A DNA stretch of 52,053 bases from Pseudomonadota bacterium (GTDB taxonomy: Bacteria; Pseudomonadota; Alphaproteobacteria; Micavibrionales; Micavibrionaceae): NCBI GenBank assembly GCA_039026795.1, contig JBCCLQ010000001.1, positions 1-52,053 on the forward strand, given 5' to 3'. Shown one piece after another: positions 554-51,976 of the stretch. The translations under genes were made by a program, and so were the position numbers. The notes beneath the pieces were generated by a model, which did no database searches, was not told where the DNA came from, and saw nothing but the letters and a program-made list of their open reading frames with translations. How positions within the stretch are numbered: position 1 is the stretch's first letter; every line of letters starts with the position of its first letter.

Positions 554-721
554 ATGTTCACCTCAATTGATAAAGCTATTATCGCCATTCTTGGCGCCAT
601 CGTTTTTCTGGTGTCGGAATATACCGACCTTGAACCTGATTTTATATCGCAAGATATCATTCAATCTGCTGCCGCTATTGTCACGGCAGCACTTGTTTAT
701 CTGGTGCCGAATAAAGAGTGA
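554..721 (+). CDS. Small two-TM membrane protein (holin candidate)
   Basis: 55-aa ORF below the track cutoff (MFTSIDKAIIAILGAIVFLVSEY...SAAAIVTAALVYLVPNKE). It has two hydrophobic helices, an AGGA 8 nt upstream of the ATG, and a TGA stop that shares its A with the next ATG (GTGATG). Confidence 0.45.
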   Translation: MFTSIDKAIIAILGAIVFLVSEYTDLEPDFISQDIIQSAAAIVTAALVYLVPNKE

Positions 722-3241: not shown

Positions 3242-3244
3242 ATC

Positions 3245-4498: not shown

Positions 4499-4558
4499 TT
4501 TAATTGACATATTGCTTTAAAGCGTTAAAACCATAGAATTCATTCAAGGAGTATTTCT

Positions 4559-7928: not shown

Positions 7929-10583
7929 ATGAGAATGACTCGCACCGGCCTTGATACTCTTCAAACACGTAAAACCCTAACTGTTGATGGAAAAGATTAT
8001 GATTATTTCAGCCTGAAAGAAGCTGAAAAACAGCTCGGAGACCTTTCCAAGATGCCTTTTACACTGAAAGTCTTGCTGGAAAACCTTTTGCGCTATGAAG
8101 ATTGTCGATCCGTTGAGGTTGATGATATGAAGGCTTTGGTGGCGCGTGAGAATAAAGAAATTGCTTATCGTCCGGCCCGCGTTCTGATGCAGGATTTCAC
8201 CGGTGTACCGGCCGTTGTTGATTTGGCAGCCATGCGTGAAGCAATGAAAGCTCTGGGTGGAGATGCACAAAAAATTAACCCATTGAGTGCTGTTGATTTG
8301 GTGATTGATCACTCTGTCATGGTTGATGAATTCGGAACGCCTCGTGCGTTTCAGGTGAATGTGGAACGTGAATTTGAACGCAATGGTGAACGCTATGCGT
8401 TTTTGCGTTGGGGGCAAGACGCATTTGATAATTTCCGTGTTGTGCCGCCAGGCACTGGTATTTGTCACCAGGTGAATTTGGAGTATCTCGGGCAGACCGT
8501 TTGGGTTGAAAAAGATCAGGACGGAAAAAATGTAGCTTATCCAGATACATTAGTGGGAACAGACTCTCACACAACAATGGTGAATGGACTTGCTATTTTG
8601 GGCTGGGGTGTCGGTGGTATTGAGGCTGAAGCTGCGATGCTTGGGCAGCCTATTTCTATGCTTATTCCTGAAGTCATTGGCTTTAAATTGACGGGAGCGC
8701 TCAAGGAAGGCGCAACCGCAACAGACCTCGTTTTGACCGTGACTGAAATGCTCCGTGAAAAAGGTGTGGTTGGAAAGTTTGTTGAATTCTACGGCGATGG
8801 TTTAGACCACATGACCTTGCCGGATCGTGCGACTCTCGGGAACATGTCACCGGAGTTTGGTTCGACATGTGCGTTCTTCCCGATTGATGATGAAGCGCTG
8901 CGTTATTTGCGCTTCACAGGTCGGGAAGAACACCGCGTGAAACTGGTTGAAGCCTATGCGAAAGAGCAGGGCATGTGGCGTGAAAGCGGTCACGAACCCG
9001 AATTCAATGACACACTTCATCTGGATATGAGTACGGTTGAACCTGCGATTGCGGGACCAAAACGCCCGCAAGATAAAATCTTATTGTCCAATGCCGTATC
9101 CGCTTTTGATGCTTTGAAAAACGATGGTACGAAGCAGGACGTGGAAGGCGAAGACTATGATCTGGAAGATGGTGATGTTGTTATCGCTGCGATTACATCT
9201 TGTACCAATACATCCAACCCATCTGTCATGGTCGGTGCGGGACTGCTGGCTCGTAATGCATTGGCAAAGGGTTTGGAAGTGAAGCCATGGGTTAAAACAT
9301 CCTTGGCGCCGGGTTCGCAAGTCGTCACAGATTATTTGGAAAAGGCAGGGCTACAAGATGATCTGGATGCGCTTGGTTTTAACTTGGTTGGTTACGGGTG
9401 CACGACGTGTATTGGTAACTCCGGGCCATTACCTGACAATATTGCGAAGGCTGTTGAAGATGGTGATTTAACCGTCTGTGGCGTTTTGTCTGGTAACCGA
9501 AATTTTGAAGGGCGTATTAATCCGCACGTTCGTGCCAACTATCTGGCGTCTCCGCCATTGGTCGTTGCGTATGCTTTGGCCGGTTCCATGGAAGTTGATT
9601 TATACAATGATCCGTTAGGTCAGGATAAAGATGGCAATGACGTCTTCATGAAAGATATCTGGCCGACGAATAAAGAAATTCAGGATACAGTTGAGCAATG
9701 TTTAACGCCTGAGATGTTCCAATCACGTTATGCTGATGTATTCAAAGGCACGGAAGAATGGCAGGAAATTTGTAGTGCAGATAGTGGCGAGACGTATGAC
9801 TGGGTACCGGGTTCAACGTATGTGAAAAATCCACCGTATTTTGAAGGGATGAGCGCCGAACCCGGCGATATCAATGATGTGAAAGGTGCGCATTGCTTGG
9901 CGCTACTCGGTGATAGTGTCACAACAGACCACGTTTCTCCGGCTGGTTCAATCGCTAAAGATTCTCCTGCTGGTGAATATCTAAAATCCCATCAGGTTAG
10001 TGTTGCTGATTTCAACTCTTATGGCTCCCGTCGCGGTAATCACGAAGTCATGATGCGTGGAACATTCGGTAACATTCGTATTCGAAACGAAATGGTACCG
10101 GACACAGAAGGTGGTTTTACCAAGCATGTTCCGAGCGGCGATGAGCTTTCAATCTATGATGCTGCAATGAAATATCAGAAAGAGGCCACACCACTGGTAG
10201 TCATTGCCGGTAAAGAATACGGCACCGGATCATCTCGTGACTGGGCCGCGAAAGGGACACGATTGCTGGGTGTGAAAGCCGTAATTGCTGAAAGCTATGA
10301 ACGTATTCACCGCTCCAACTTGGTTGGTATGGGCGTATTACCATTGCAGTTTAAAGATGGCGACAGTCGTAAGTCTTTAAACCTAACAGGCGATGAAGTT
10401 TTTGATCTCACAGGTATTGAAGGCAATTTGAGCCCACGTCAGGATGTTGAAATGACAATTCATCGTGCAGACGGATCAGCAGATAAGGTACAACTCCTCT
10501 GCCGCATCGATACACTCGATGAGATTGAATATTACAAACATGGTGGAATTTTGCATTACGTGTTGAGAAGCTTGGCGGCTTAA
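7929..10583 (+). CDS. acnA: Aconitate hydratase A
   Basis: 884 aa with canonical AcnA/IRP blocks: [64 protein letters not shown]. Confidence 0.95.
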
Positions 10584-11524
10584 TCGACCCATTCACCCTG
10601 ATCCTGTTCACCGGACTCAATCATTTCCTGAATTTGGGGTGCTAGGATGGTATGAGCGACTTCTTCGGCATCTATGATGGCTTTTGAGAAGTTTGGGCGT
10701 TCAGGGCGGTATGTCACATCGTATAGCATCTCATATTTATTAATCGCACGATTAAGTGAGCCGACACGTTCAACGGTACGTTTGCCTTTACGGTCATCAT
10801 CTGAATATTGTTCGATAAGCTTATAGGCTTTTTTCTTGTTGTACATACCAGCCTGAAAAGCGAGTTGAATACCTTCTAAAAATGCTGCCGATACAGTCAA
10901 AGATTGCGATACTCTGACGGATGACCCGTTCGGCTTTTTCTTTGCTGTAAAGTTAAATGTTGTTGTGCGGTTAGCCGATCTCAAGATGACGCCGCATTTT
11001 GCTTCATCCGATTTAAAAGCAACAACCAATGCAATGTTTGAGTCATATTCAATGTGAACATCTTTGCCTGCCTTCTTAAAAGCCTCTTCGGCAAATTCGA
11101 TTGATTCTTTATACTTACCGTTATTGGCTGCATCGCATTGTTCAATAATATCTAAAAATGCATGGTGCTCGCCTTCTTCAAACACGATGCGACCTTTGTG
11201 ATAGACCACACCCCAGATATCAGGATTCCAGTCACGCTCATATCCTTTGATGACTTCTTGCCATAAATCCTGCCAATAAAATTTACGTCGTCTCACCATA
11301 ATTGGACCGGAATCTTGAAATTCCTTGACGATCATGGCTGCGAAACGCACACAGCTATGCATATTTTGGGCGCGCACGACAAAACTTTCACGTTCACCTG
11401 TGCGCTCGGAATACATTGCAACAACCATACGATTGCTAAGCGCAACTACGTCATCTTCATTTTCCAGCTTTTGTGTGGCTGAAATTACAAATTTTTCGCG
11501 AACAAGTGATGAGTTGAATTCCAT
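10580..11524 (-). CDS. Hypothetical protein (no family recognised)
   Basis: 314-aa ORF with coding-like composition and an acidic C-terminus. Its stop overlaps the acnA stop (TTAA). Confidence 0.55.
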
Positions 11525-11970: not shown

Positions 11971-12600
11971 TTATTCGGCTCGGTTTTCTGCGAAGAGAGC
12001 GTCGATATCGTCCTGAGATTGGGCTTTCATTTTGCCCTCTGAAACTTCTTCAACGGCTTTGTTCTTGTCGGTTTCAACGTTAATGCCTAAGCGATTTAAA
12101 GTGCCGCTCAAACGCTCTTCAATCATTTGCAGGTTTTCAAGCGTCTTGCGTATACGTTGCCCTGTTAAATCCTGGAAAGTACAGGCCAACAGAATGTTTT
12201 GAACATCACTTCTGATATTTTCTAAGAGCTCTTCGCGTTTGTCAGGATTGTCCCAGTCTTTTTGCTCACCCACAAGCTCTGCTATTCTGTCGGCGGCATC
12301 CAGAATTTTATTGGCTGCTTCTTCTGTATCGCCAATTACAGCTTCCAGTTCAACACCAGTATTTACCTGTGTTTCTCCCTCGCCTTGATAGGATATCGCA
12401 GACATAATATCCAGTATTTCACTAAAGCGTCGCGCAATGCCTTCTTCGGCCATATCGACTTGCTGGGATGTGGCATTGATTTCCATGGAAATTTCATCAA
12501 AACGGCGGGCAATGAATTGTTCCATAAGAGACAATTTGTCATTAATGCCGAAGACTGAGTCTTCCAAATCACCGACAACGTTTTCGGGTTCTTTACTCAC
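11971..12600 (-). CDS. cheZ: CheZ-like CheY-P phosphatase
   Basis: The FQDLTGQRIRK motif matches the CheZ active-site QDxTGQ, within a long helical acidic protein. Preferred start is GTG 12600, with GGAGA 7 nt upstream. The track ORF extends to 12663. Confidence 0.65.
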   Translation of the reverse strand: MSKEPENVVGDLEDSVFGINDKLSLMEQFIARRFDEISMEINATSQQVDMAEEGIARRFSEILDIMSAISYQGEGETQVNTGVELEAVIGDTEEAANKILDAADRIAELVGEQKDWDNPDKREELLENIRSDVQNILLACTFQDLTGQRIRKTLENLQMIEERLSGTLNRLGINVETDKNKAVEEVSEGKMKAQSQDDIDALFAENRAE

Positions 12601-39331: not shown

Positions 39332-41113
39332 ATGAAATACCATTATCAGTATATAACTTTAAGGTCGGCTAAACAAATTGCGCTTTTATGTAGCGCTTTG
39401 ATTTTATTTTGTTTTTCAGCCTATGCTCAGGATGTGGCGCGTCCGGAGCCCGAAATCGGTACCGGAATTTCGAGTAAAAATGCCGTTTCCGCCCAAAATC
39501 ACATGGTTGTGAGCTCTCATCCCGAGGCAACACGGGCGGGGGAAGCCGTTTTGGCGGCTGGTGGCACAGCAGCGGATGCGGCCATAGCCGTACAGATGAT
39601 GTTGGGTTTGGTGGAGCCGCAAAGTTCCGGCATCGGCGGTGGAGCCTTTATTCTGTATTACGATGCCAAGAAGGGGCAGCTTGTTTCTTTGGATGGGCGT
39701 GAAACGGCACCGGTGACGGCCGGAAAGCATTTGTTTACAGGTCAGGATGGAAATCCGATGGCGTTCATGGATGCCGTCGTTGGCGGTCGCGCGGTCGGAA
39801 CGCCAGGCACTTTGCGGGTACTGGAAAAACTTCATAGCTGGTACGGGCAAAAAGAGTGGGGGAGTTTGTTCGGATATCCGATCAAAGTGGCGGAGAATGG
39901 ATTTACAGTGACACCGCGTTTATCCAAAATGGTGGAAGCGGATCGCAAATATTTAGGCACATATACGGATACAAAACTGTACTTCTATCCTGATGCACTC
40001 AATCCTGTTCAGGTTGGAACAACGTTACGCAATCCTGATTACGCGGTGACGTTGCGCGCCATTGCACAAAACGGAGCGGATGCTTTTTACACCGGAGAGA
40101 TTGCGCAAGAGATTGTCCGCACCGTTCGTGAAGTGGCGCGAGATAATCCAGGTTTATTATCGATGGAAGATTTGGCGAATTATGAAGCCAAAGAGCGTAA
40201 GCCTGTCTGTGGTAATTATCGCAAATATGCAGTGTGTTCGATGGGGGAGCCATCCTCAGGGGGACTGACATTATTGTCCATACTCGGGATGTTGGAATAT
40301 CATAACTTGCGTGCGCTTGGGTCAAATAATCCGACAAGCTGGCATTTGATTGGTGAAGCCAGCCGTTTAGCATTTGCCGACAGGAATTATTACATGGCTG
40401 ATGCCGATTTTGTCCGCACGCCAGGTGAACGGTTGATCAATCGTGATTATTTGAAGCAGCGCGCCATTCTGATTAGCCCGAATATTGTTCAAAGTGACGT
40501 TTCACATGGTGTTCCACCCGGCTGGAATGATGTTGAGCCATTGGGGCCTGATGTGTATATTCGCAGACCCGGAACGAGTCATATGTCGATAGTCGATAGC
40601 TATGGCAATATGTTGTCGATGACGACAACGATTGAAGGTGCGTTTGGTTCGAAGCTTATGACGCAAGGGTTTTTGTTGAACAATGAACTCACCGATTTTT
40701 CATTCGCGCATGAAAAGGACGGCAAGGCTGTCGCCAATCGTGTGGAAGGCGGGAAGCGTCCGCGATCATCCATGGCACCGACCATTGTATTCGATCCTAA
40801 CAACAATCCGTTTTTGATTATCGGCTCTGCGGGTGGTAGCCGCATCATAGGCTTTGTAGCGCAACGCATTGTCGCGATGATTGATTGGCAAATGGATGTG
40901 CAGGATGCGTTGAACATGCCGAATATTGTGAATCGCGGAAACGCGATGGAAGTTGAAAACGGCGCGGAAAGCATTGCTCGCGGTTTGGAAAAAATGGGAC
41001 ACACAGTCAAGATGGATGAGATGACCAGTGGTTTAACGGCCATTCATTTCAAGAACGGGCAAATGTACGGCGCCGCCGATCCCCGCCGTGAAGGCCTTGC
41101 CGCAGGACTTTAA
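39332..41113 (+). CDS. ggt: Gamma-glutamyltransferase
   Basis: Signal peptide; GGNAADAA-like block GGTAADAA; autoprocessing site PGTSHMSIVD (Thr nucleophile); GSAGGSRI. The start is uncertain (39287, 39302 or 39332). Confidence 0.9.
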   Translation: MKYHYQYITLRSAKQIALLCSALILFCFSAYAQDVARPEPEIGTGISSKNAVSAQNHMVVSSHPEATRAGEAVLAAGGTAADAAIAVQMMLGLVEPQSSGIGGGAFILYYDAKKGQLVSLDGRETAPVTAGKHLFTGQDGNPMAFMDAVVGGRAVGTPGTLRVLEKLHSWYGQKEWGSLFGYPIKVAENGFTVTPRLSKMVEADRKYLGTYTDTKLYFYPDALNPVQVGTTLRNPDYAVTLRAIAQNGADAFYTGEIAQEIVRTVREVARDNPGLLSMEDLANYEAKERKPVCGNYRKYAVCSMGEPSSGGLTLLSILGMLEYHNLRALGSNNPTSWHLIGEASRLAFADRNYYMADADFVRTPGERLINRDYLKQRAILISPNIVQSDVSHGVPPGWNDVEPLGPDVYIRRPGTSHMSIVDSYGNMLSMTTTIEGAFGSKLMTQGFLLNNELTDFSFAHEKDGKAVANRVEGGKRPRSSMAPTIVFDPNNNPFLIIGSAGGSRIIGFVAQRIVAMIDWQMDVQDALNMPNIVNRGNAMEVENGAESIARGLEKMGHTVKMDEMTSGLTAIHFKNGQMYGAADPRREGLAAGL

Positions 41114-42729
41114 GCCGCTTTTCGGGCTTTGAGGTTAAGAGCCGCTTCCATCAGGGTTTTGGTGTATTCCTCTTTCGGACTATCGAAGATATCCGAAGCG
41201 TTTCCGCTTTCAACAACCTTACCGTTTTTCATGACAATCAAATCATGTGCCATAGCGCGGACAACCCGAAGATCGTGACTGATGAACATATAAGCCAGAT
41301 CATGTTTATCCTGCAGTTCGCGTAAGAGATCGACGATTTCGGCTTGAACCGATACATCGAGTGCGGATGTGGGTTCATCGAGGACAACAAATTTGGGATG
41401 CAGTACCATGGCGCGGGCAATGGCGATACGCTGGCGCTGTCCTCCGGAAAATTCATGGGGGTAGCGATGCCGCGTTTCAGGGTTGAGGTGCACGTCATTT
41501 AGTGCTTCCACGACCAAATCATCGCGGCCTTTGGAATCCAGATCGCGGCGATGGATTTTTAAACCTTCTTCAATGATTTGTGCAATCGACATGCGCGGTG
41601 AGAGGGAGCCGAAGGGATCCTGAAATACGATTTGCATATCAGACCGTAATGGTGTCATTGCCCCACGTTTATATTTGGAGATATCGGTTCCATCGAACAC
41701 GATGTTGCCTTGACCGTTCAAAAGACGAAGAAGAGCGAAGCCAAGTGTTGATTTTCCTGAGCCTGACTCACCGACCACACCGACGGTGTGTCCTGATTTA
41801 ATCTCAACATCTATGCCGTCCACAGCCTTAACCCAATCGTTGATCTTGCCCCAGAATGTTTTGCCTTTCGGAAAGTGGACTTTGATATCTGTACCTTGAA
41901 TGATGTCTTTGCTGTCAGCTTTGGGTGGATTGGCACGACCGCGCGGGCGGGCGCCCAGTAATTTTTTGGAATAGTCATGCGATGGGGACGCGAAGATTTT
42001 TTTACCTGCATCTTGTTCAACAATCTTACCGTTTTTCATGACGCAAACATGATCCGCGAATTTTTCGACGATGGACAGATCATGCGTGATCATCAGCATC
42101 GCCATATCGAGTTCATTTTGCAGACGTTCCAGCAATTCCAGAATTTCAGCCTGAACCGTGACATCTAGTGCGGTTGTCGGTTCATCCGCAATCAGAAGCT
42201 CGGGGTTATTCGCCAAAGCCATGGCGATCATCACGCGTTGCCGTTGCCCACCCGAGAGTTGATGTGGGTATGCGTTCAATCGTTCGCGCATCATGGGCAG
42301 TTGAACGAGATCAAGTAATTCCAGAACGCGGTCTTTGGCGTCATTATCGCTCATTTTTTGATGGAGCTTTAAAATCTCACCGATTTGTTTTTCGATTGTA
42401 TGGAGCGGGTTCAACGCCGTCATCGGTTCTTGAAAAATCATCCCGATTTGGGAGCCGCGAATGGTGCGCATGAAAGTATCTTTTTTACCGACAAGCTCTT
42501 CACCTTCAAAAATAATGGACGACCCTTCCGGGTGCATGGCTTGCGGGTAGGGGAGCAGTTGCATGATGGACATGGCTGTCACTGACTTGCCCGATCCGCT
42601 TTCCCCGACCAGTGCGACGGTCTGTCCCCTATCAATTGTAAAGGATGCATTTTTGACGGCGTTGAAGATGCCGTCTGTGGTTTTGAAATCGACGCTTAAA
42701 TCCTGAACGGTCAATAAAGTATTGGACAT
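41110..42729 (-). CDS. yejF: Dual-ATPase ABC protein of the YejABEF (microcin C/peptide) importer
   Basis: Two Walker A motifs (GESGSGKS twice), two LSGGQRQR signatures, and overall similarity to E. coli YejF. Confidence 0.85.
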
Positions 42730-42735
42730 TCACAA

Positions 42736-42972
42736 CTATTTAGCAGTTAGAGACGAAGCCACCAAGGGTTTTGGTTTATTATTTTCATTGTTTGGCACAG
42801 GTTGTTTGCGCTTTAAGCGTTTTCGCTCTTGTGGTGATAGAGACGCAACGACAGCGACCCGCACAAAAATAGTCGTTAGAATGGGGTAATCGCCTCCATA
42901 TAATAAGCATAAGCGACAGAGTTCAGTGAAATTTAAAGACGCCGTTTGGGGGTATCGGATATTTATGTTCAT
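42736..42972 (-). CDS. Possible small ORF/leader immediately upstream of yejF
   Basis: AGGAGG lies 9 nt upstream of the ATG, a promoter and operator lie just upstream, and the stop is 6 nt before the yejF ATG. The sequence is not family-like and its composition is odd. Confidence 0.25.
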   Translation of the reverse strand: MNINIRYPQTASLNFTELCRLCLLYGGDYPILTTIFVRVAVVASLSPQERKRLKRKQPVPNNENNKPKPLVASSLTAK

Positions 42973-42992
42973 TGTTCATTCCCTCCTTTTCT

Positions 42993-43013
42993 AAATGAGA
43001 ATAATTCTCATTT
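42993..43013. promoter_or_regulatory. Fur-family-type operator: perfect 21-bp palindrome with a 7-1-7 core
   Basis: AAATGAGAATAATTCTCATTT. The core TGAGAAT-a-ATTCTCA matches the Fur 7-1-7 consensus TGATAAT-n-ATTATCA at 12 of 14 positions. Confidence 0.55.
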
Positions 43014-43016
43014 GCA

Positions 43017-43045
43017 ATTAATAAATAGGATAGAGGGAATGTCAA
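43017..43045 (-). promoter_or_regulatory. Sigma70-like promoter TTGACA-N17-ATTAAT reading toward yejF
   Basis: Reverse complement of 43017-43045. The operator starts 4 nt downstream of the -10 element. Confidence 0.5.
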
Positions 43046-43091
43046 TGCTATACCTTTGTGCGTGGCAAAATTGTGGAGTCGGAATTTTTGG

Positions 43092-43127
43092 ATAAAAGAA
43101 AAGCCCTGCGAGGGGGATGCAGGGCCT
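43092..43127 (-). terminator. Rho-independent terminator of the fasciclin gene
   Basis: On the minus strand, GCCCTGC-atccccctc-GCAGGGC is followed by TTTTCTTTT. Confidence 0.7.
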
Positions 43128-43162
43128 TTCACACTCTTCTTTTGAAAAAGGAAGGAGAGTTA

Positions 43163-43711
43163 TTACTGAGACGCGTCGTCCTTCGGCAGTATCACTGTAT
43201 CAATCACGTGAATCACACCATTGCTTGTTTTGATGTCAGTCGCTGTGACTGTTGCGTCGTTGATTTTAACGCCTGCATCACTTGCATTGACTGTGATCAT
43301 TTGGCCTTGAAGTGTTGCCACTTCGCTTGTACCTGCCTGAATGTCACCAGCTTTAATTTTTGCGGGTACGACATGGTATGTCAGGATGCCAGCCAGTTTT
43401 TCTTTATTTTCCGGCTTTAAAAGCTCTTCCACTGTGCCTTCAGGCAATTTTGCGAAGGCATCGTTTGTTGGTGCAAACACTGTGAACGGGCCTTCGCCTT
43501 TCAATGGCTCAACCAGATCAGCGGCTTGAATAGCGGCTACAAGTGTTGAGAAATCTTCATTACCGATCGCTGTGTCGATAATGTCTTTTTTCATAGCTTT
43601 TTCAGCTTTTTTGTCGCCGTATCCGTAACCTTTATCCATATCACCGGCAAAGGCTTGTGAACCGACGGCTATGAGGCCGAGAGCGGCTGTTGCTAAAAGG
43701 GTCTTCTTCAT
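43163..43711 (-). CDS. Fasciclin (FAS1) domain secreted protein
   Basis: Signal peptide, then [14 protein letters not shown] and [13 protein letters not shown], the FAS1 H1/H2 motifs. Confidence 0.85.
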
Positions 43712-43791
43712 AAGTTAGGTCTCCTTGTTTTGAAACTTATGCTCTTTCTACGCACAGTTTCAAACTTGGTTCACCTTGCCACAAAGATACC

Positions 43792-45111
43792 TTATTTACG
43801 GCTTTTTGCAGCGTTTTCAACGGAGAGGTAGTTGAAGATATCGTCTGTGATTTTGGCTTCAACGGATTGTAGATCATCCAAAGAGAGCTCGTCGAGACGG
43901 CAGTTTTTGTCTTCCGCCAGTTTCACAGCGCGGCCGGTCACATGGTGTGCATCACGGAAGGGCATATTCAATTCGCGCACCAGCCAATCGGCAAGCTCCG
44001 TCGCGGTGGAATAGCCGCTCTGTGCCGCTTCCAACATCGCGTCTTTATTCCATGTGGCGCTGGAGAGCATGCCTGTCATCGCATCGAGGCAGAGGATCAT
44101 AGTATCGAAGCTATCGAAGACGGATTTTTTGTCTTCCTGTAGGTCTTTGTTATAGGTCAGCGGCAAAGCCTTCATCACCGTCATCATCTGCACCAGATTT
44201 CCGGTAAGGCGGCCAGTTTTGCCACGGATCAGTTCGGCGGCATCGGGGTTTTTCTTTTGCGGCATAATGGAAGAGCCGGTGCTCCAAGCATCGCTCATGG
44301 TCACAAAACCAAATTGTGGGGTCGACCAGATGATCAATTCCTCGGCAAGGCGAGAGAGATGAAGGCCACATTGCGCGCAAGAAAATAGAAATTCGTTGGC
44401 GAAGTCACGCGCAGAAACGCCGTCCATGGTGTTCATCACAGGGCGATCAAAGCCGAGCTGTTCTGCCGTAAAGTCTTTATTAATCGGGAATCCCGTTCCG
44501 GCCAAGGCGGCAGAGCCGAGCGGTGACGTGTTGAGACGTTTGCGGCAATCTGCAAAGCGGAGTTTGTCGCGGTTCAGCATGCAGGCATAAGCATCCAGAT
44601 GACGGGCGAGAGTGACAGGCTGCGCCACCTGCAGATGCGTAAAGCCGGGCATGACCGTATCGGCGTGCTGTTCTTCCAAGACATCAATGGTTTCCTGAAA
44701 GACTTCAATGCGTTCCATGATAACATCGCAAGCTTCGCGCACCCACAGGCGAAAGTCGGTTGCGACCTGATCATTTCTAGATCTGGCCGTGTGCAGGCGA
44801 CCGGCCGGCTCGCCGATAATCTCTTTCAAACGGTTTTCGATGTTCATATGGATGTCTTCGAGGTCGCGACGGAATTCAAATTGACCGTTTTCGATTTCGC
44901 TTAGGATTTGGTCGAGGCCTTTATGGATCGCGTCCTTATCCGCATCCGAAATGATGTTTTGCTTGGCCAACATGGCGGCGTGCGCTTTCGAACCCGCGAT
45001 GTCCTGTTTATACAGGCGCTTGTCGATATCGATGGAGGCGTTGATTTGCTCCATCACGTCATCGGGCTTTTCATCAAAACGCCCGCCCCACATTTTATTT
45101 GCGTCGGTCAT
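43792..45111 (-). CDS. argH: Argininosuccinate lyase
   Basis: [15 protein letters not shown] and [12 protein letters not shown] are the fumarate-lyase signature motifs. Confidence 0.95.
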
Positions 45112-46355
45112 TAAGCGGCCTTCTTTTTTGAGCTTTCGGCTTTGCCGTGGACTTGCGTGTTATTGCGTAAGCGCACAGCGTTGATTTTGATAAACCCGTC
45201 GGCATCTTTTTGATCATAGCCGCCCTCTTCATCCATGGAGGATTGCTTCGGATCGTACAATGCGTTTGGTGATGTACGGGCAAGCGGGTAGGCCATACCT
45301 TTTAAGAGCTGAACCTGAACCTCACCATTCACAGTTTCCTGCGCCTTGTTCATGGTTGTCATGAGTAGGTCGAATTCAGGTGAGAACCAGAAGCCGTTAT
45401 AAATCAAATGCGCCATGTCGATGGACAGGCGGTCACGAATACGCATGACTTCACGGTCCATGGTGAGGCCTTCCAGATCGCGGTGGGCTTTATAAAGAAT
45501 TTCGCCGCCTGGTGTTTCGTACACACCGCGCGATTTAATGCCGACAAAACGGTTTTCAACCATATCAATACGGCCAATGCCGTGCTTGGTACCAAGATCA
45601 TTCAAATACGTGAACAAGTCCAGAGCGCCTGTGACTGTTTTGCCGTCGTGGGCCACAGAAACCGGAATACCTTCCTGAAACGTGATCGTAATGATGTCCG
45701 CTTCATCGGGAGCATCAGCGATAGAGGTTGTGCGAGAATACACATCCTCCGCACATGCTGCGTTCGGATCTTCCAGAATGCCGGCCTCGTGAGAGATGTG
45801 CAGAAAGTTATCATCTTCTGAATACGGTTTTGAACGGGAAGCTTTCACCGGAATACCGTACTGATCGGCATAGTTCAGCATGTCCTGACGCCCTTCAAAG
45901 CGAGTGAGGAATTCTTCCATTTTCCATGGTGCTAAGACTTGGATATCGGGTTTGAGTGCATAGTAAGAGAGTTCAAAACGCACTTGGTCGTTCCCTTTAC
46001 CGGTTGCACCGTGAGACACAAATTGTGCGCCTTCTTTTTCCGCGATTTCTATTTGGCGTTTTGCAATAATCGGACGGGCAACGGAGGTGCCGAGGAGATA
46101 GCGCCCTTCGTAAATCGCCTGAGATTTAATAGCCGGGAAAATATAATCGGTGATGAATTCTTCTTTCAGGTCTTCGACATAGACTTTGGATGCACCGATT
46201 TTTTCGGCCTTTTCGCGTGCAGCTTCGAAATCTTCTTCCTGACCGACATCCGCGATGTAGGCGATAGTCTCATAACCTTCTTCGATAAACCATTTCAGGA
46301 TGACGGATGTATCCAATCCACCTGAATAGGCCAGTACGATTTTTCCTTTAGACAT
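45111..46355 (-). CDS. argG: Argininosuccinate synthase
   Basis: [28 protein letters not shown]. Start at MSKGK (46355) with AAGAGGAGAAG upstream. The TAA stop shares one nt with the argH ATG. Confidence 0.95.
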
Positions 46356-46369
46356 TTTACTTCTCCTCT

Positions 46370-47218
46370 TTAAATCTCTACGCCGACGTCTTCGAGGCAA
46401 TAGGCCAAAATGGCTTTTTGCGCGTGCAGGCGGTTTTCAGCTTCATCATAAATCACGGAAGAGGGGGACTTTGCAACCTCTTCGGTGACTTCTTCCCATT
46501 CATGAATCGGTAAGCAATGCATGAAAATGGCTTCCGGTTTGGCCAAATCCATCAAATCCTGCGTGACTTGGTAGGGTTCGAACTTGGCAATCGCTTTGCC
46601 ATCCTGTCCCAGTGAGACCCATGTATCGGTCACCAGAACGTCGGCATCTTTGGCAGCGTCTTGGGCCGAAATATCGTTAAAGGGGGTCGCCATAACGAAG
46701 TCAAAGCCGAAAATGGGGGCTGCTTCCTCATAGGTTTTGCTGACATTGTTATCATCACCGAACCAGGCGATTTTCTTGCTCGCGACATCGCCCAGTTTTT
46801 CCTCAATCGTCATCAGGTCAGCCATGATTTGGCAGGGGTGTGATTGATCTGTCATGCCGTTGATGATTGAGATGTCGGAATATTGTGCGAGCTCTTCCAT
46901 CAGCGCGTGATCGCTCATGCGGATCATCACGGCATCGACGAAACGGGACAGAACCTTGGCCGTGCTTTCCGCACTTTCTGCGCCGCCGATTTGCATTTCA
47001 TTCATACTCATGACAACCGTATGGCCGCCAAGCTGTTTCATCGCAACATCAAATGACACGCGTGTGCGGGTCGAAAGCTTGTCGAACATCATTGCCAGTG
47101 TCAGGCCTTTGAACAGCTGTGGCGGTGAAAATTTCTGCGCTTTTAACTCATGGGCATGCTTTAAAATGCTTTTAAGTGTTTCCGCATCGAAATCGCTGAG
47201 GTTGATGAAGTGTTTCAT
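46370..47218 (-). CDS. argF: Ornithine carbamoyltransferase (short, 282 aa)
   Basis: STRTR, HPCQ, DTWVSLG (compare DxWxSMG) and HCLP motifs. Confidence 0.8.
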
Positions 47219-48429
47219 TCGACCAACTCCAGCGTTTCGTCTCTTAAGGTTTGTGCGATAATATCAACGGCTTCGTCAATTTCGGACTCGTTGACCGTTA
47301 GTGGTGGCGTGAGACGCAGCGTGTTTGCACCTGCTTGTGTTGCCAGAAGTCCGTTTTCCAAAAGTTTGTTGAGCAAAGATGCGCATTTGAATTTTGTATC
47401 GATACCGATCATCAGGCCTTTGCCACGGACATCCGTGATTGTACCTGTATTGCTTTCGCTTTTTAGTGTTTCGAGTTTGGACAGGAAATGTGCGCTGGCT
47501 TTATTCACGTGATCCAGAAAGCCATCCGATAGCATTTCAGACACAACGTGATAAACCACATTGGTTGCCAGCGGATTGCCGCCGTAGGTCGTGCCGTGAT
47601 CACCAGCCTCAAATGCTTCGGTGAATTTCTTCTTCGCCATGAACGCTCCCACGGGGAAACCTGAACCCATGCCTTTTGCGAGACACACCACATCAGGTTC
47701 ATATTCAAAAGCTTCATGCGCCATGAGTGTGCCCATGCGACCCATACCGGCCTGAATTTCATCGGAGATCATCACAATTTGGTGTTCATCGCAGAGTTTG
47801 CGAAGGCCTTGGAAAAATTGGGCGTCCCCTGGCATGAGGCCACCTTCACCCTGAACGGGCTCAAAGATAATCCCGCAGATTTTGTCAGTGATAAGCGCTT
47901 TGACACTATCAAGATCACCATAGTCTGCGAAATGCATGCCTTGTAAATAGGGGCCGAATTTTGGCTGCTTTAGTGACTTATAAGTTGCACTGACTGCGCC
48001 ATAGGTACGACCATGGAACGATCCTTTGAAAGTGATAAATTCTTTACAGTCTTCGCTTTTGTTTTTATGCGCCCATGCGCGAGCGAGTTTCAACGACCCT
48101 TCAACAGCTTCCGCGCCAGAGTTGCAGAAAAATATTTGTTCCTGACAGCAGTTGTTGATGAGTAGTTCGGCCGCTTTCAATTTCGGTTCAGTCGGATAAG
48201 AACCAACGGTCATAATCAAACCGGTATCCAGTTGTTCGGTTATGGCTTTGTGCATGACAGGGTGATTGTGACCCAGAGAACAAACTGCGATACCAGCCGC
48301 AAAGTCTATATAGGATTTACCTTCGGTGTCTTTCACACGTACGCCATCACCACTCGCTAAGGCCACTTTCTTTTGCGGGTAGAGCGGGATGATAACTTCG
48401 TTTGCACGTTTTTGCATATCCAGCGTCAT
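47215..48429 (-). CDS. argD: Acetylornithine aminotransferase
   Basis: Class-III PLP aminotransferase: GHNHP, CNSGAEA, DEIQAGMGRMG and LAKGMGSGFP (PLP Lys). Confidence 0.9.
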   Translation of the reverse strand: MTLDMQKRANEVIIPLYPQKKVALASGDGVRVKDTEGKSYIDFAAGIAVCSLGHNHPVMHKAITEQLDTGLIMTVGSYPTEPKLKAAELLINNCCQEQIFFCNSGAEAVEGSLKLARAWAHKNKSEDCKEFITFKGSFHGRTYGAVSATYKSLKQPKFGPYLQGMHFADYGDLDSVKALITDKICGIIFEPVQGEGGLMPGDAQFFQGLRKLCDEHQIVMISDEIQAGMGRMGTLMAHEAFEYEPDVVCLAKGMGSGFPVGAFMAKKKFTEAFEAGDHGTTYGGNPLATNVVYHVVSEMLSDGFLDHVNKASAHFLSKLETLKSESNTGTITDVRGKGLMIGIDTKFKCASLLNKLLENGLLATQAGANTLRLTPPLTVNESEIDEAVDIIAQTLRDETLELVE

Positions 48430-48430
48430 G

Positions 48431-49297
48431 TTATTTCTCCGTTTTTAATTCTTTATCGTATTTTGTTTTTTCAGCCTGACGCACAATCATAGTTCCGGTA
48501 CCAGCTTTTGTATAAACTTCATTCCGCAACATATCTTTCTTGAAGCCATTTAAAATGTGCACACGTTTTACTCCTGCTCTTAGGGCGTCAACACAGTTTT
48601 CCAATTTGACTTGCATACCGCCGATGACAGTTTTGTCATTGATCATTTGTTCAATATCGGCAGGGGTCAGGACGGATTGAACTGTGTCGTCTATCTTCAC
48701 GCCATCAACATCGGTCAGGAAAATTAGCTTTGCAGCTTTCATGCCCGATGCTAACGCTACAGCCATATTGTCGGCATTGATATTTACCGTGACGCCTTGT
48801 TTGAGTAGGCTAAGGCAAGGCACGATAATCAGTCGCGTTGTTTCAAACATTTTACGCGGGAACTTCGTATGAACTTTCTCGATCGTTGCATCAAAACGCG
48901 TGATGTCATTTTTCTTTGGTCTGCGTTTATACAATGCCCAATGATCGGGTACGGTGTTAAACACATAACCATCCAGATCGAGTTTTGCCATGTTCTCCAG
49001 AATACGAAAGGCGAAATCTCCGGCCAGAACTTTTTTGACACAAGCGATATCGGCTTCCGATGTAATACGTCTTCCATCAATTTTCGTCGGCTCGCGTTTT
49101 TCGGATTGAATGGCTGCATCAATTGCTGCGCCGCCACCGTAAATGAGAAGGACTTTTATGCCGTCGTTTGTGAGTTCGTGAATATTTTTGAGTAGGCTCA
49201 AGCGTGCGGTATCGTCCTCAATTATGCGTCCGCCGGCCTTGACCACAAATATCTGGCCTGCAAAACGTTTTTTGTAGAAGGACTTGAAGTTGATCAT
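48431..49297 (-). CDS. argB: Acetylglutamate kinase
   Basis: VVKAGG, IYGGG, NINADNMA and FLTDVDG amino-acid-kinase motifs. Confidence 0.8.
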   Translation of the reverse strand: MINFKSFYKKRFAGQIFVVKAGGRIIEDDTARLSLLKNIHELTNDGIKVLLIYGGGAAIDAAIQSEKREPTKIDGRRITSEADIACVKKVLAGDFAFRILENMAKLDLDGYVFNTVPDHWALYKRRPKKNDITRFDATIEKVHTKFPRKMFETTRLIIVPCLSLLKQGVTVNINADNMAVALASGMKAAKLIFLTDVDGVKIDDTVQSVLTPADIEQMINDKTVIGGMQVKLENCVDALRAGVKRVHILNGFKKDMLRNEVYTKAGTGTMIVRQAEKTKYDKELKTEK

Positions 49298-49301
49298 GAT
49301 A

Positions 49302-49340
49302 CCACGGAGTTCACGGAGTTAATAAAGAGGGCACAGAGAG
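49302..49340. repeat. Left flank of the GxxExxY cassette: CACGGAG x2 plus CACAGAG
   Basis: CCACGGAGTTCACGGAGTTAATAAAGAGGGCACAGAGAG. Confidence 0.7.
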
Positions 49341-49718
49341 TCATAGCTTGAACCTCTTAATCCCATCTTTAATTAAAGGGACATTAAAGTTGATAAGAAG
49401 GCCTACCTCTTTTTTAGATAGTTTCATGTAAGTTAAGATCTGTGCTTCATGAATGGGGATTAACGTATCAACACTTTTTAATTCAACGACGACGGTATCC
49501 TCTACCAGTAGATCAATTCTAAAGGCGTTATGAATCACTAAATCCTTGTATTGAACTGTAATTGGAAATTGTCTTTCAGTTTTTAGTCCTCGTTTTTCTA
49601 AATCATGAAATAGGCAGTCCTCGTAAACTTTTTCGTAAAGCCCCGGTCCCATAACCCTATGGATTTGAAGAGAAGCATCCACAATTTCGCCTGTTATATC
49701 ATTTAATTTTTTAGCCAT
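49341..49718 (-). CDS. GxxExxY family protein (PD-(D/E)XK-like)
   Basis: GPGLYEKVYEDCL supplies the GxxExxY motif, alongside DLLVED..VVELK and a size of 125 aa. Confidence 0.8.
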   Translation of the reverse strand: MAKKLNDITGEIVDASLQIHRVMGPGLYEKVYEDCLFHDLEKRGLKTERQFPITVQYKDLVIHNAFRIDLLVEDTVVVELKSVDTLIPIHEAQILTYMKLSKKEVGLLINFNVPLIKDGIKRFKL

Positions 49719-49754
49719 CTCTGTGATCTCTTTTTATCTCGGTGTTCTCTGTGG
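49719..49754. repeat. Right flank of the GxxExxY cassette: CTCTGTG x2 (inverted relative to the left flank)
   Basis: CTCTGTGATCTC...GTTCTCTGTGG. Its reverse complement CCACAGAGAACAC compares with the left-flank CCACGGAGTTCAC. Confidence 0.7.
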
Positions 49755-50750
49755 TTACGGGTATATCGGGCTGTCGAAGTGGAGGCCTGCTGTTTCATCG
49801 AGGCCGAACATGAGGTTCATGTTTTGGACGGCTGTTCCCGATGCGCCTTTGAGCAAGTTATCAAGTGCGCCTTGGGCAATCATGGTTCCGTTATTGCCTT
49901 GCTGATATGATAAGTCGACGAAGTTATTAGAAACGACGTTTGTCATTTCAACCTTATCAACGATGCGTATGAATGGAGCATCATCATAGAGATTATTCTC
50001 TGCACAGTCAGTATTTTGAATGATCGCGTGCGCAAAAATACCACGCGAGAAAGGCCCTACAGTCGGCGCAAAGTTCAGTTGTTCTTCATCCAGTCCGCTT
50101 GTCGCCAGAATTTCCGGGATATGGCGGTGAGAATTGACCAGATAGCTGCGCATGTTCTGTGCTAGTGCCGGATGATCAACAGGATCACGCGGAGACCGAC
50201 CGCCACCTGATGTACCGGAAATGGCGATCACGTCCGCGCTATCCATTTTATCTTTGAACGGTAACAGTAAAAGTTGCACCAGCAAGGCGAAACATCCCGG
50301 ATTAGCAACCGCATCAGATTTAGCAATCTCATCTTTAAAGATCTCTGGTGCGCCATAGATAAAACGACCGTTCAGTAAGTCCGCATGTTGGTGATCGACA
50401 GCGTAATATTTTTTATACGTATCCGCGTTATTTAGCCGGAAGTCGGCAGACATATCGATGATTTTGGTTTTGCCGAGGAATTGCGGCACGATATCCTGCG
50501 CCGTTTTATGGGGAAGGCAGGCAAAGACAATATCGCTGTCCGCCGCCACAGTTTCATAATCTGTGTTCGATAATGTGAGCCCTTCAATGTGTGACAAGCG
50601 CGGGAAGACCTTTGATAAAGGTTCCTGATCATATTGGCGGGAGACCAGATATTTGATGTCCACATCCGGGTGTTGCAACAGACAGCGTAAAAGCTCTGTG
50701 CCCGTAAATCCGGTAACGCCTATGATGGATGTTTTAATTTTACTTGTCAT
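49755..50750 (-). CDS. argC: N-acetyl-gamma-glutamyl-phosphate reductase (common long form)
   Basis: IIGVTGFTGTELLRCL Rossmann start, NPGCFA active-site Cys block, and LLKGASGTAVQNMN at the C-terminus. Confidence 0.9.
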   Translation of the reverse strand: MTSKIKTSIIGVTGFTGTELLRCLLQHPDVDIKYLVSRQYDQEPLSKVFPRLSHIEGLTLSNTDYETVAADSDIVFACLPHKTAQDIVPQFLGKTKIIDMSADFRLNNADTYKKYYAVDHQHADLLNGRFIYGAPEIFKDEIAKSDAVANPGCFALLVQLLLLPFKDKMDSADVIAISGTSGGGRSPRDPVDHPALAQNMRSYLVNSHRHIPEILATSGLDEEQLNFAPTVGPFSRGIFAHAIIQNTDCAENNLYDDAPFIRIVDKVEMTNVVSNNFVDLSYQQGNNGTMIAQGALDNLLKGASGTAVQNMNLMFGLDETAGLHFDSPIYP

Positions 50751-50776
50751 ATTTTATCCAATATCAATCGTTTTGC

Positions 50777-50794
50777 CATTCAAGTGTTTGAATG
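50777..50794. promoter_or_regulatory. Perfect 18-bp palindrome upstream of argC
   Basis: CATTCAAGTGTTTGAATG, 27-44 nt upstream of the argC ATG. Confidence 0.35.
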
Positions 50795-50950
50795 ATCACT
50801 GCTTTGTTTCAAATAGTTGTGGAGGATTTTTAGGGTGCAATCAACCAGCTGATCTCAAAGAAGTGATCAGATGCTACGTCGGCGTCGGTTGTTTGCAATA
50901 AAACTCATAAAAGACAAATAATCGTATAGGGCGTTGAAAGTCAATAATTT

Positions 50951-51976
50951 TTATAAGGTTGTTTTCCTTGGGTCGAAAGCATCGCGCACGGCTTCACCAA
51001 TAAAAGTCAGCAATGTGAGCATCACGGCCAGCGACATAAAGGCTGTAATGCCGAGCCATGGGGCTTGTAGGTTATTTTTTCCTTGTGCGAGCAATTCACC
51101 CAAAGAAGCTGAGCCGGGCGGCAGGCCGAGGCCGAGGAAATCTAATGATGTCAGCGCGGTGATAGAGCCTGTGAGGATAAAGGGCATAAGCGTGAGGGTC
51201 GCGACCATAGCGTTGGGCAATACGTGGCGGCGCATGATGGTGAGGTTATTGACGCCCAGCGCGTTTGCGGCCCGGACATAATCAAAATTTCGGGCACGCA
51301 GGAATTCCGCCCGCACCACATCGACGAGCGAGACCCACGAGAATAAGAGCAGAATTGCGAGCAACGTCCAGAAGCCGGGCACAAACATGGCCGAAAAAAT
51401 GATGAGAATGTATAGCGAGGGCAGGGAAGACCAGATTTCGATGATACGTTGCATAATCAAATCCAGACGACCGCCGAAGTACCCCTGAAACGCACCTGCC
51501 GTAATGCCGATAACGGAACTGATAACCGTTAAGATCAGCCCGAAGAGCACTGAGACCCGAAAGCCGTAGATCACGCGAGCGGCAACATCACGCCCCTGAT
51601 CATCCGTGCCGATGATGTTATCAGCTGTTGGTGGTGAGGGTGCGGGGGTTTCGAGGTTGTAATTGATTGTGTCATAGGAAAAACGGATCAGTGGCCAAAC
51701 CATCCAGCCCTTTTCCTCAATCAAATCCGCAACGTAAGGGTCGCGGTAATCAGCGGCCGTTTCGAAATCTCCGCCAAAGGTCGTTTCGGGATAATCAATA
51801 AAAGTCGGGAAATAGAGCGCGTTATCGTAAGAAACCACAATCGGCCTGTCGTTTGCGATAAATTCGGCAAACAGGCACACCACAAGCAGCGCGATGAATA
51901 TCCAGAAGGACCAATAGCCGCGTTTATTGGCCTTAAACTGTGATAGCCGCCGTTGTGTGATGGGTGAAAGATTCAT
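50951..51976 (-). CDS. yejE: ABC permease YejE of the YejABEF importer
   Basis: RRLSQFKANKRGYWSFWIF...IANDRPIVVSYD...DYRDP...GTDDQGRDV closely tracks E. coli YejE, including the long periplasmic loop. Confidence 0.85.
   Translation of the reverse strand: MNLSPITQRRLSQFKANKRGYWSFWIFIALLVVCLFAEFIANDRPIVVSYDNALYFPTFIDYPETTFGGDFETAADYRDPYVADLIEEKGWMVWPLIRFSYDTINYNLETPAPSPPTADNIIGTDDQGRDVAARVIYGFRVSVLFGLILTVISSVIGITAGAFQGYFGGRLDLIMQRIIEIWSSLPSLYILIIFSAMFVPGFWTLLAILLLFSWVSLVDVVRAEFLRARNFDYVRAANALGVNNLTIMRRHVLPNAMVATLTLMPFILTGSITALTSLDFLGLGLPPGSASLGELLAQGKNNLQAPWLGITAFMSLAVMLTLLTFIGEAVRDAFDPRKTTL

Follow-up and report, generated by a model that had tools for sequence, protein, structure and literature searches.

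An old and probably inherited split of the yej importer operon around arginine biosynthesis genes in a Micavibrio-like bacterium

The separation of yejE and yejF

We have analysed a stretch of 52,053 nucleotides from a Pseudomonadota bacterium of the Micavibrionaceae (assembly GCA_039026795.1, contig JBCCLQ010000001.1, positions 1 to 52,053; hereafter the window), in which yejE and yejF, the genes for a permease and for the double ATPase of a Yej-type ATP-binding cassette (ABC) importer, are parted by a cluster of arginine biosynthesis (arg) genes. The same split is found across the Micavibrio-like clade, and it is highly probable that the window shows the local form of a gene order which is old, vertically inherited and typical of that clade. 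The checked coordinates of the open reading frames (ORFs) place both yej genes on the minus strand, with 8,221 bp between the yejE stop and the yejF start, an interval that holds in order argC, a GxxExxY gene, argB, argD, argF, argG, argH, a fasciclin gene and a 433-bp spacer (Table 1). This agrees with the original prediction, which was made from the sequence alone and had described the two genes as lying 8.2 kb apart on one strand, with the arginine, GxxExxY and fasciclin genes in between, as the ORFs and the family matches also have it. Owing to this interval, which includes 9 genes and a terminator, the window does not hold a contiguous four-gene yej operon.

The identity of the two separated genes is supported by their family matches. 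YejE matches NF011596 over its full length with 488.8 bits (cut-off 439), and is thus a member of that family. For YejF the best match is NF011713, with 713.7 bits over residues 1-528 of 539, which is under the equivalog cut-off of 834; by this measure YejF here is a family-level relative and no certified equivalog. The protein has two PF00005 stretches, with the Walker A, signature and Walker B motifs intact in both and DEPT(T/S)ALD occurring twice. An exact look-up returned no identical copy of the window's YejF on record.

Gene order in related genomes

The expectation that yejE and yejF are normally adjacent, on which the original prediction was built, was borne out by a survey in which YejF was scanned for in one genome per species and in JGI metagenomes, and YejE was located by tblastn (160 loci). 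Indeed, the two genes lie less than 150 bp apart in 132 of the 146 loci that hold both, and most of the others have gaps of 150-750 bp. The YejF scan of metagenome contigs yielded distant relatives (at most 63% identity), L083 excepted, and nearer ones were retrieved by YejE and YejF searches of a large protein collection, reaching 91% (YejE) and 87% (YejF) identity; many Micavibrio-like YejE proteins are 83-91% identical to that of the window. The nearest relatives are Micavibrio-like and carry the NCBI titles Micavibrio, Pseudobdellovibrionaceae or Bdellovibrionales, NCBI filing Micavibrio under Bdellovibrionota. The MipZ and ChpT-type phosphotransferase genes of the window, together with the Fur-type box described below, are alphaproteobacterial features.

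In every close relative fetched, arg genes part yejE from yejF within the same chromosomal neighbourhood, the YejF of these relatives being 62-87% identical to that of the window. The lineages with arg genes at this same site are L161/L166, L163, L167, L168, L169, L172, L174, L001, L003 and L083 (Table 1). The outer flanks are conserved across the clade, with pyrD-yejA upstream and yejF-ggt(-)-rpsU-pepP(-)-mipZ downstream, and in the relatives a SBP_bac_5 gene and a second BPD_transp_1 gene stand upstream, in the order A-B-E. The split is also not peculiar to the junction between yejE and yejF, as those between yejA and yejB and between yejB and yejE carry inserts in relatives too: at the former there are kdsB-like and His_Phos_1 genes (with or without SlyX and a gene of 418 amino acids, aa) and at the latter a conserved 83-90-aa gene, as read in L161 (2214-11026), L163, L164, L172 and L174. 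The yej operon as a whole is pulled apart, with its order kept. The searched literature contained nothing relevant on yej or arg gene order in Micavibrio.

A short contig of a Micavibrio metagenome-assembled genome (MAG) has a further layout (L030, 1-5274), namely yejB, an 89-aa gene, DUF937(-), a 419-aa gene, DUF937(-) and yejF, with no yejE between, which would be either another rearrangement or a low-coverage misassembly.

Table 1. Features of the window, in the direction of transcription, and corresponding features of related loci. Interval lengths run from the yejE stop to the yejF start; leader peptides are given up to the stop codon.
Sequence	Feature	Position or length	Strand	Remarks
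Window	yejE, permease of the Yej (microcin C/peptide) ABC importer	50951-51976	-	NCBIfam NF011596, microcin C ABC permease subfamily
Window	TTGACT, -35-like element of the arg-cluster promoter	50939-50944	-	TTGAC invariant in seven lineages
Window	leader ORF, MSFIANNRRRRSI	50867-50908	-	four consecutive Arg codons at 50876-50887
Window	argC, N-acetyl-gamma-glutamyl-phosphate reductase	49755-50750	-	TIGR01850, 299.4 bits (cut-off 233.6)
Window	GxxExxY / PD-(D/E)XK_3 (PDDEXK_3) gene	49341-49718	-	TIGR04256, 146 bits
Window	argB, acetylglutamate kinase	48431-49297	-	TIGR00761, 137.2 bits (under the cut-off of 151.3); Pfam AA_kinase, 103 bits
Window	argD, acetylornithine aminotransferase, divergent allele	47215-48429	-	TIGR00707, 438 bits (cut-off 410)
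Window	argF, ornithine carbamoyltransferase, short 282-aa form	46370-47218	-	NF001986, 352.6 bits (cut-off 306)
Window	argG, argininosuccinate synthase	45111-46400	-	NF001770, 550 bits (cut-off 334); true start probably the ATG at 46355
Window	argH, argininosuccinate lyase	43792-45111	-	TIGR00838, 574 bits (cut-off 280)
Window	fasciclin-domain protein	43163-43711	-	Pfam PF02469, 142 bits; N-terminal signal-peptide-like sequence
Window	intrinsic terminator after the fasciclin gene	43090-43130	-	arms 43098-43109 and 43119-43130, then a T-run
Window	promoter-like TTGACA-17 nt-ATTAAT	43017-43045	-	read from sequence; pattern only
Window	perfect 19-bp palindrome AATGAGAATTATTCTCATT, candidate Fur operator	42994-43012	-	5 nt downstream of ATTAAT, over the predicted transcription start
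Window	78-codon orphan ORF	42736-42972	-	AAGGAGG ribosome-binding site; between palindrome and yejF
Window	yejF, double ABC ATPase of the Yej importer	41110-42729	-	best NCBIfam family YejF
L161	leader peptide MLTQAHIPARRRRRTN	12242-12292		
L163	leader peptide MLMQAYIPARRRRRTI	9902-9946		
L168	leader peptide MIMHAPVALRRRRIR	579-620		
L169	leader peptide MKAQNTINRRRRRH	112-156		
L172	leader peptide MNTVSTLGTLPRRRRT	11078-11128		
L174	leader peptide MNNNTNRRRRR	11069-11104		
Relatives	M20D gene	L161 11023-12216; L163 8677-9870; L003 3883-5076; L004 4517-5710; L170 4997-6193; L171 4024-5208		
L172	yejE–yejF interval	7,677 bp		leader, argC, argB, argD, argF, argG, argH, 245-aa gene; almost the window's layout
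L174/L175	yejE–yejF interval	4,932 bp		leader, argC, argB, argD, argF, opposite-strand 179-aa gene
L161 + L166 (one TARA scaffold)	yejE–yejF interval	15,317 bp		M20D, leader, argC, argB, argD, argF, bPH_2, argG, YjdM, eight more genes including argH, DUF2795
L169 (2.1-Mb contig)	yejE–yejF interval	not spanned		argC, argB, argD, argF, argG, two genes, argH overlapping yejF by 11 nt
L170 (Micavibrio)	yejE–yejF interval	6.5 kb		opposite-strand sulfate-transporter-family gene, M20D, GNAT, argD, BrkB, 87-aa gene
L171 (Micavibrio)	yejE–yejF interval	7.2 kb		DUF179, DUF1275, M20D, 221-aa gene (no family match), argD, argF, BrkB, 87-aa gene
L001	yejE–yejF interval	at least 10 kb		argC, argB, argD, argF, two genes, argG, one gene, argH, fasciclin
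L003	yejE–yejF interval	6.1 kb		M20D, one gene, GNAT, argF, argG, argH
L004	yejE–yejF interval	5.5 kb		M20D, two-component-system genes, GNAT; no arg genes
L083	yejE–yejF interval	not spanned		argG ... argH ... yejF
L002 (related MAG)	yejB-yejE-yejF	2104-4770; adjacent		then the same convergent ggt as after the window's yejF

Composition, divergence and assembly

The interval had been described in the original prediction as foreign-looking cargo, a view that the analysis of composition does not sustain. With the exception of the GxxExxY gene, the genes of the interval have a guanine-plus-cytosine content (GC) of 0.44-0.52, the window mean being 0.464 (standard deviation, sd, 0.038), and their codon usage is typical; in GC, GC at third codon positions (GC3) and codon-usage distance, none of the arg genes, nor the fasciclin gene, yejE or yejF, departs from the window mean by more than about 1.5 sd. 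The only compositional outliers are the GxxExxY gene and a 78-codon ORF of the spacer. As to signs of mobility, there is no integrase or transposase domain and no tRNA in the window, and no direct repeats were found at the borders of the block. None of the marks of a genomic island (atypical composition, mobility marks, absence from relatives at the same site) is thus presented by the interval.

The arg and yej products have diverged in parallel. Against the nearest relatives the identities are 84% for ArgC, 81% for ArgB, 88-90% for ArgF, 92-94% for ArgG and 83-85% for ArgH, alongside 90% for YejE and 86-87% for YejF, and against L169 they are 74, 58, 70, 88 and 75% for the same five Arg proteins and 80% for YejF; towards L001 and L003 the Arg and Yej identities are lower again, together. 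Even against the nearest relatives the rate of synonymous substitution (dS) is saturated or not calculable, which indicates that the arrangement is old, and the ratio of nonsynonymous to synonymous substitution (dN/dS), 0.03-0.14 where calculable, shows that the genes are under purifying selection. For yejE a dN of 0.069 and a dN/dS of 0.03 were obtained against L161, and for yejF a dN of 0.098 with saturated dS against L166. The neighbour-joining (NJ) trees of YejE and YejF recover the same groups, in which the window stands with L161/L166, L163 and L164/L167, followed by L170 and L171 (clade bootstrap of 91% in the YejF tree); yejE and yejF thus belong to one system.

We have also examined whether the arrangement is present in independently assembled reads. 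In the Logan unitigs of run X1, a marine metagenome holding 99% of the sequence, the segments 42404-43308 (fasciclin, spacer, yejF) and 49450-51646 (GxxExxY, argC, yejE) are found at 100% identity and at an even depth of about 6-7x. As these unitigs are an independent assembly and contain both junctions, the arrangement is no assembly chimera.

The arginine genes and local changes within the interval

Five of the six Arg enzymes score above their curated cut-offs (Table 1); ArgB, the sole one under it, was assigned by best match, by Pfam AA_kinase and by its conserved position. To the proteins at the same position in relatives, ArgC is 74-84% and ArgB 75-81% identical. ArgF has a 15-aa deletion in the ornithine-binding domain, common to L161, L163 and L167, and retains the motifs STRTR, HPCQ and HCLP; with its catalytic motifs kept, this short form is probably functional. 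Neither argJ, argA nor argE was found in the block or in the window, which within its limits therefore does not encode a complete pathway. In L168, whose interval is without argF, argG and argH, a 212-aa ORF (7996-8634) matches part of ArgH only (45% identity) and may be a remnant of argH.

A distinct behaviour is seen for ArgD, which has just 56-58% identity to the ArgD of close relatives, these being 73-95% identical to one another. DNA identity to the relatives falls within argD alone, and the adjacent Arg proteins are 80-94% identical, a pattern which suggests an in-place replacement of argD.

The GxxExxY gene is a second local peculiarity. Its GC of 0.352 is about 3 sd below the gene mean, and it lies within an insertion of about 450 bp (49298-49754, minus strand, GC 0.37) between argC and argB. 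No relative has the gene, and their argC–argB spacing is of about 8-35 bp or a 4-nt overlap. The gene is bordered by an 8-bp inverted repeat, CACAGAGA/TCTCTGTG, and its best named homologues are from other alphaproteobacteria (65-73% identity), unnamed matches reaching 71-90%. Judged from these features, it looks like a later, lineage-specific insertion at the argC-argB junction.

In many relatives yejE is followed by an M20D amidohydrolase (DoeB2/CpsA-like) gene, whose start frequently has a 4-nt overlap with the yejE stop; the window lacks this gene, and its arg leader region comes directly after yejE. We considered whether the M20D protein of the relatives could be ArgE and rejected this, as NCBIfam puts M20D in the amidohydrolase/DoeB2/CpsA group, apart from ArgE or DapE. 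A search of the window for the cargo genes of relatives (M20D, bPH_2, YjdM, a 322-aa gene, OsmC and others) returned rpsU only.

An Arg-codon leader ORF upstream of argC

Conservation among the relatives extends over about 200 bp in front of argC, a region that holds a short leader ORF in seven lineages. These ORFs have 11-16 codons, of which 4-5 in succession encode Arg, and the stop comes 0-2 codons after this run; the Arg run near the stop is the sole conserved feature of the leader peptides, and the differences within the run are synonymous or Arg-keeping. Each of these loci has a single ORF of this type, which invariably precedes argC, and loci without argC have none; the background in 2.35 Mb of other loci is 0.0022 per 200 nt. 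In all seven lineages the TTGAC stands 35-36 nt before the leader ATG, a spacing which suggests that the arg leader transcript is leaderless. The locus thus shows one hallmark of a leader-peptide attenuator, a short ORF downstream of the promoter and ahead of the first gene, in which codons for the regulating amino acid stand in tandem.

With respect to RNA structure, a hairpin overlaps or follows the leader stop codon in every lineage, and in the window's subgroup the stop region UGAUCAC(C/U) can pair with (G/A)GUGAUCA about 90 nt downstream, with one compensatory change. The U-tracts of the leader region are weak, the consensus fold is poor (-1.9 kcal/mol), and no convincing canonical intrinsic terminator was found after the leader ORF. 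At gathering thresholds no Rfam family matched anywhere in the window, a relaxed search of the arg leader (E up to 10) gave no credible match, and in the searched literature we found no description of an Arg-codon attenuator of an arg operon. On balance, we lean towards the leader ORF being a genuine ribosome-mediated regulatory element, and the step that it would control may be termination, Rho access or masking of the argC ribosome-binding site.

The fasciclin gene and the spacer upstream of yejF

The slot just upstream of yejF is variable. A fasciclin ortholog at the matching position is found in L001 only (62-68% identity), and closer relatives have there DUF2795, a 245-aa gene or other genes, which speaks against the single arg-fasciclin block of the original prediction. 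The terminator that had been assigned to the fasciclin gene is indeed a strong hairpin with a U-run, formed by a 12-bp GC-rich stem followed by UUUUCUUUU (-25.7 kcal/mol, z = -4.4). The spacer that follows had been presented as a 430-bp AT-rich non-coding stretch; the size holds (433 bp), whereas its GC of 0.41 is ordinary for a window whose intergenic mean is 0.38 and which has seven gaps of 330-470 bp, and a 78-codon ORF lies inside. No counterpart of the spacer was found in relatives, and it is in this sense lineage-specific. We also considered that it could be a decayed copy of the relatives' DUF2795 gene, a candidate dismissed as tblastn and blastn gave no similarity.

Within the spacer, a promoter-like pattern is followed by a perfect palindrome (Table 1). 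The -10 element ATTAAT fails the rule of the consensus scan, which asks for A at position 2, and the site is thus absent from the scan list. The palindrome has a single copy in the window, none of 100 shuffles equalled it, and it was found in none of 168 related loci. An assignment as an ARG box was rejected because the half-site spacing does not fit, as judged by eye against the consensus. With its TGAGAA-N3-TTCTCA core, the palindrome is a 19-bp 9-1-9 inverted repeat, as is the Fur box of Caulobacter crescentus, for which a set of sites including 11 verified in vitro has been listed (PMC2724300); the layout is identical to that of sites given there, e.g. TTTGAGAATGGTTCTCAAT and AATGAGAACAGCTCTCAAC. 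A spacer variant from a second sample of the same study (run X2), 95-99% identical over window positions 42862-43381, has 14 substitutions and 2 indels over the spacer and the fasciclin start and none in the promoter-palindrome segment, which counts as weak evidence. Taken together, these elements make a separate, possibly iron-controlled yejF promoter plausible.

For the 78-codon ORF located between the palindrome and yejF, a search of 1.84 billion representative proteins gave no homolog; the ORF matches no NCBIfam family and has the most deviant codon usage in the window. It was on these grounds rejected as a conserved small protein, and is probably a 5' leader rather than a conserved gene.

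Elsewhere in the window, a second Fur-box-like site, TGAGAATGACTCGCA (7930-7944, plus strand, 2 mismatches), lies on the start codon of aconitase; by count it is within chance expectation. Aconitase is a Fur target in Caulobacter.

Origin of the split and alternative explanations

The history that we favour starts from a contiguous yejABEF operon which, in the ancestor of the clade, would have been interrupted between yejE and yejF by a set made up of the M20D amidohydrolase, a GNAT gene and then argC, argB, argD, argF, argG and argH. The interval would afterwards have gained and lost genes repeatedly, the order yejA, yejB, yejE, yejF and the outer neighbours having stayed. The present genome would then be a compact variant, arg leader-argC-[GxxExxY]-argB-argD-argF-argG-argH-fasciclin-spacer-yejF, in which YejF would still be the cognate ATPase of the Yej importer; co-transcription is unnecessary for transporter assembly. 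Reading the signals in the sequence, there are probably at least three transcription units: yejE with whatever precedes it; the arg cluster, which would be transcribed from its own conserved promoter with the Arg-codon leader and end at the fasciclin terminator; and yejF, which would depend on a lineage-specific promoter overlapped by the Fur-box-like palindrome. The fasciclin terminator would cut yejF off from the arg transcript, and the yejF promoter is probably Fur-repressed.

The idea of an insertion, put forward in the original prediction, survives in part. An insertion into an ancestrally contiguous operon is upheld by the conserved flanks and by the contiguous genes of L002, but as an event in a distant ancestor and not as a recent import, for the interval is clade-wide, native and co-diverging. 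In fact, the original prediction had proposed a comparison of synteny and had itself named a shared split with vertically inherited arg genes as the outcome that would tell against it; the relatives share the split, and their arg genes co-diverge with YejE and YejF. A foreign arg-fasciclin block that entered the yej operon of this genome or of its immediate ancestors is accordingly very improbable: the contiguity of the operon in most bacteria, the compositionally foreign and lineage-specific GxxExxY gene and the anomalously divergent argD would suit it, whereas the arg, fasciclin and yej genes are native in composition, mobility genes, tRNA and flanking repeats are missing, and relatives with as little as 62% YejF identity still have the arg-in-yej layout, their Arg proteins co-diverging and dS being saturated. 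It is just as hard to sustain that this yejF belongs to another Opp/Dpp-type transporter and lies 8 kb from yejE by chance. The YejF score of 713.7 bits under the cut-off of 834, and a genome whose remainder is out of view, leave such a reading some room, but no other family scores nearly as well as YejF, yejF has no further permease or binding-protein gene beside it in the window or in relatives with called genes, no ATPase gene follows yejE in any relative, and the YejE and YejF trees agree in their groups; in addition, L002 joins yejB-yejE-yejF-ggt, and the same ggt adjoins yejF here. A chimera of a yejABE locus and an arg...yejF locus, for which the metagenomic source and the low depth (about 6-7x) could be invoked, has a negligible probability, given the independent unitigs over both junctions, identical and evenly covered, and the recurrence of the order in over 10 independent assemblies, contigs of 0.2-2 Mb among them.

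A different kind of explanation is that the linkage is itself selected, yej and arg genes being kept as a supra-operon for co-regulated peptide import and arginine synthesis, with yejF ending the attenuated transcript in relatives. The yej-arg linkage does persist through saturating divergence across the clade, start/stop overlaps are found between yejE and M20D (L161, L163, L164) and between argH and yejF (L169), and peptide-degrading neighbours are conserved, ggt and pepP throughout and M20D in many relatives. However, what the interval contains varies strongly, with unrelated genes and genes on the opposite strand among it, arg genes are missing from L004, and argG and argH have been lost from the L174 interval. 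The arg cluster is preceded by a conserved promoter and leader of its own, and in the present genome yejF is uncoupled from the arg genes by a strong terminator together with a separate promoter-like region. Simple inheritance can explain the persistence, and we regard selected linkage as unlikely. We are similarly doubtful of a coupled regulation in which the energising subunit of the importer is controlled apart from its membrane parts. In relatives whose argH overlaps or abuts yejF, the latter would then be the last gene of an attenuator-governed transcript, so that a shortage of arginyl-tRNA would turn peptide import on, and in the present genome a Fur-controlled promoter would have taken over yejF, placing import under iron control.

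Several observations weigh against the inherited split and the three transcription units favoured here. The content of the interval differs greatly among lineages, L004 lacking arg genes, and a single ancestral insertion is in this respect parsimonious only; argD is far more diverged than its neighbours, and part of the cluster is maybe not strictly vertical. L002 has adjacent yejE and yejF and yet falls inside the clade in both NJ trees, which suggests a secondary deletion that re-joined the two genes, the alternative, from single-gene NJ trees, being that the split arose more than once. The edge of the window is 77 bp upstream of yejE, and yejA, yejB and any second yej system or ATPase are beyond view. 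In what concerns transcription, the runs containing window sequence are DNA runs only, the -10 element before yejF is weak, the Fur-box assignment rests on likeness to the Caulobacter sites, and no terminator was seen between the palindrome and yejF, although its absence is unproven.

Significance and comparison with known systems

For annotation, these results mean that yejF is here no orphan or decaying ATPase and that the arg cluster is no island; operon and island callers based on E. coli would mislabel the locus across the whole, mostly uncultured Micavibrio-like clade. From the point of view of evolution, the locus offers a clean, datable case of an operon pulled apart with its order kept, the interval ranging from 4.9 to 15.3 kb in relatives. 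The Arg leader, if a true attenuator, would extend leader-peptide control to arginine synthesis and could be the first for an arginine biosynthesis operon, and the Fur-type operator before yejF suggests a link between iron and peptide import.

The candidate Fur operator resembles the Caulobacter crescentus Fur box in being a 19-bp palindrome with the TGAGAA-N3-TTCTCA core, placed over the predicted start, which is the geometry of a repressor site. It differs in that the targets given in the available part of that paper (PMC2724300) include no ABC peptide-importer ATPase and no orphan small ORF, and in being unique to this lineage. Leader-peptide attenuators are known from trpL, hisL and pheL, including trpL of Sinorhizobium meliloti (bioRxiv 10.1101/606483), and an Arg-codon leader ORF controls Salmonella speF (PMC6386406). 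The putative arg leader shares with the trpL/hisL/pheL type a run of end-product codons in a short ORF between the promoter and the first biosynthetic gene, conserved while the rest varies. Unlike these, it would act through Arg codons on an arg biosynthesis operon, has no clear intrinsic terminator and belongs to an apparently leaderless transcript.

In E. coli, Brucella melitensis and Sinorhizobium meliloti, yejABEF encodes an importer that takes up microcin C and antimicrobial peptides (PMC10924461, PMC4994006, PMC8406287, PMC10128002). The present system has in common with it the YejE permease and the double-ATPase YejF, to which the relatives add YejA and YejB in the order A-B-E-F. In contrast to the E. 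coli type, yejE and yejF are in this clade parted by 4.9-15.3 kb of arg and other genes, with smaller inserts between yejA and yejB and between yejB and yejE in relatives. An importer whose ATPase gene is unlinked from the permease genes is exemplified by MsiK, the shared ATPase of the sugar importers of Streptomyces. As in MsiK-type importers, the ATPase would here be transcribed apart from the permeases and assembled in trans; unlike MsiK, there is no sign that yejF serves several transporters, and the gene remains in its ancestral relative position, co-evolving with yejE. The interruption of an operon that uncouples an ATPase gene from its permeases is a known kind of event, of which the present instance is a previously undocumented and well supported one.

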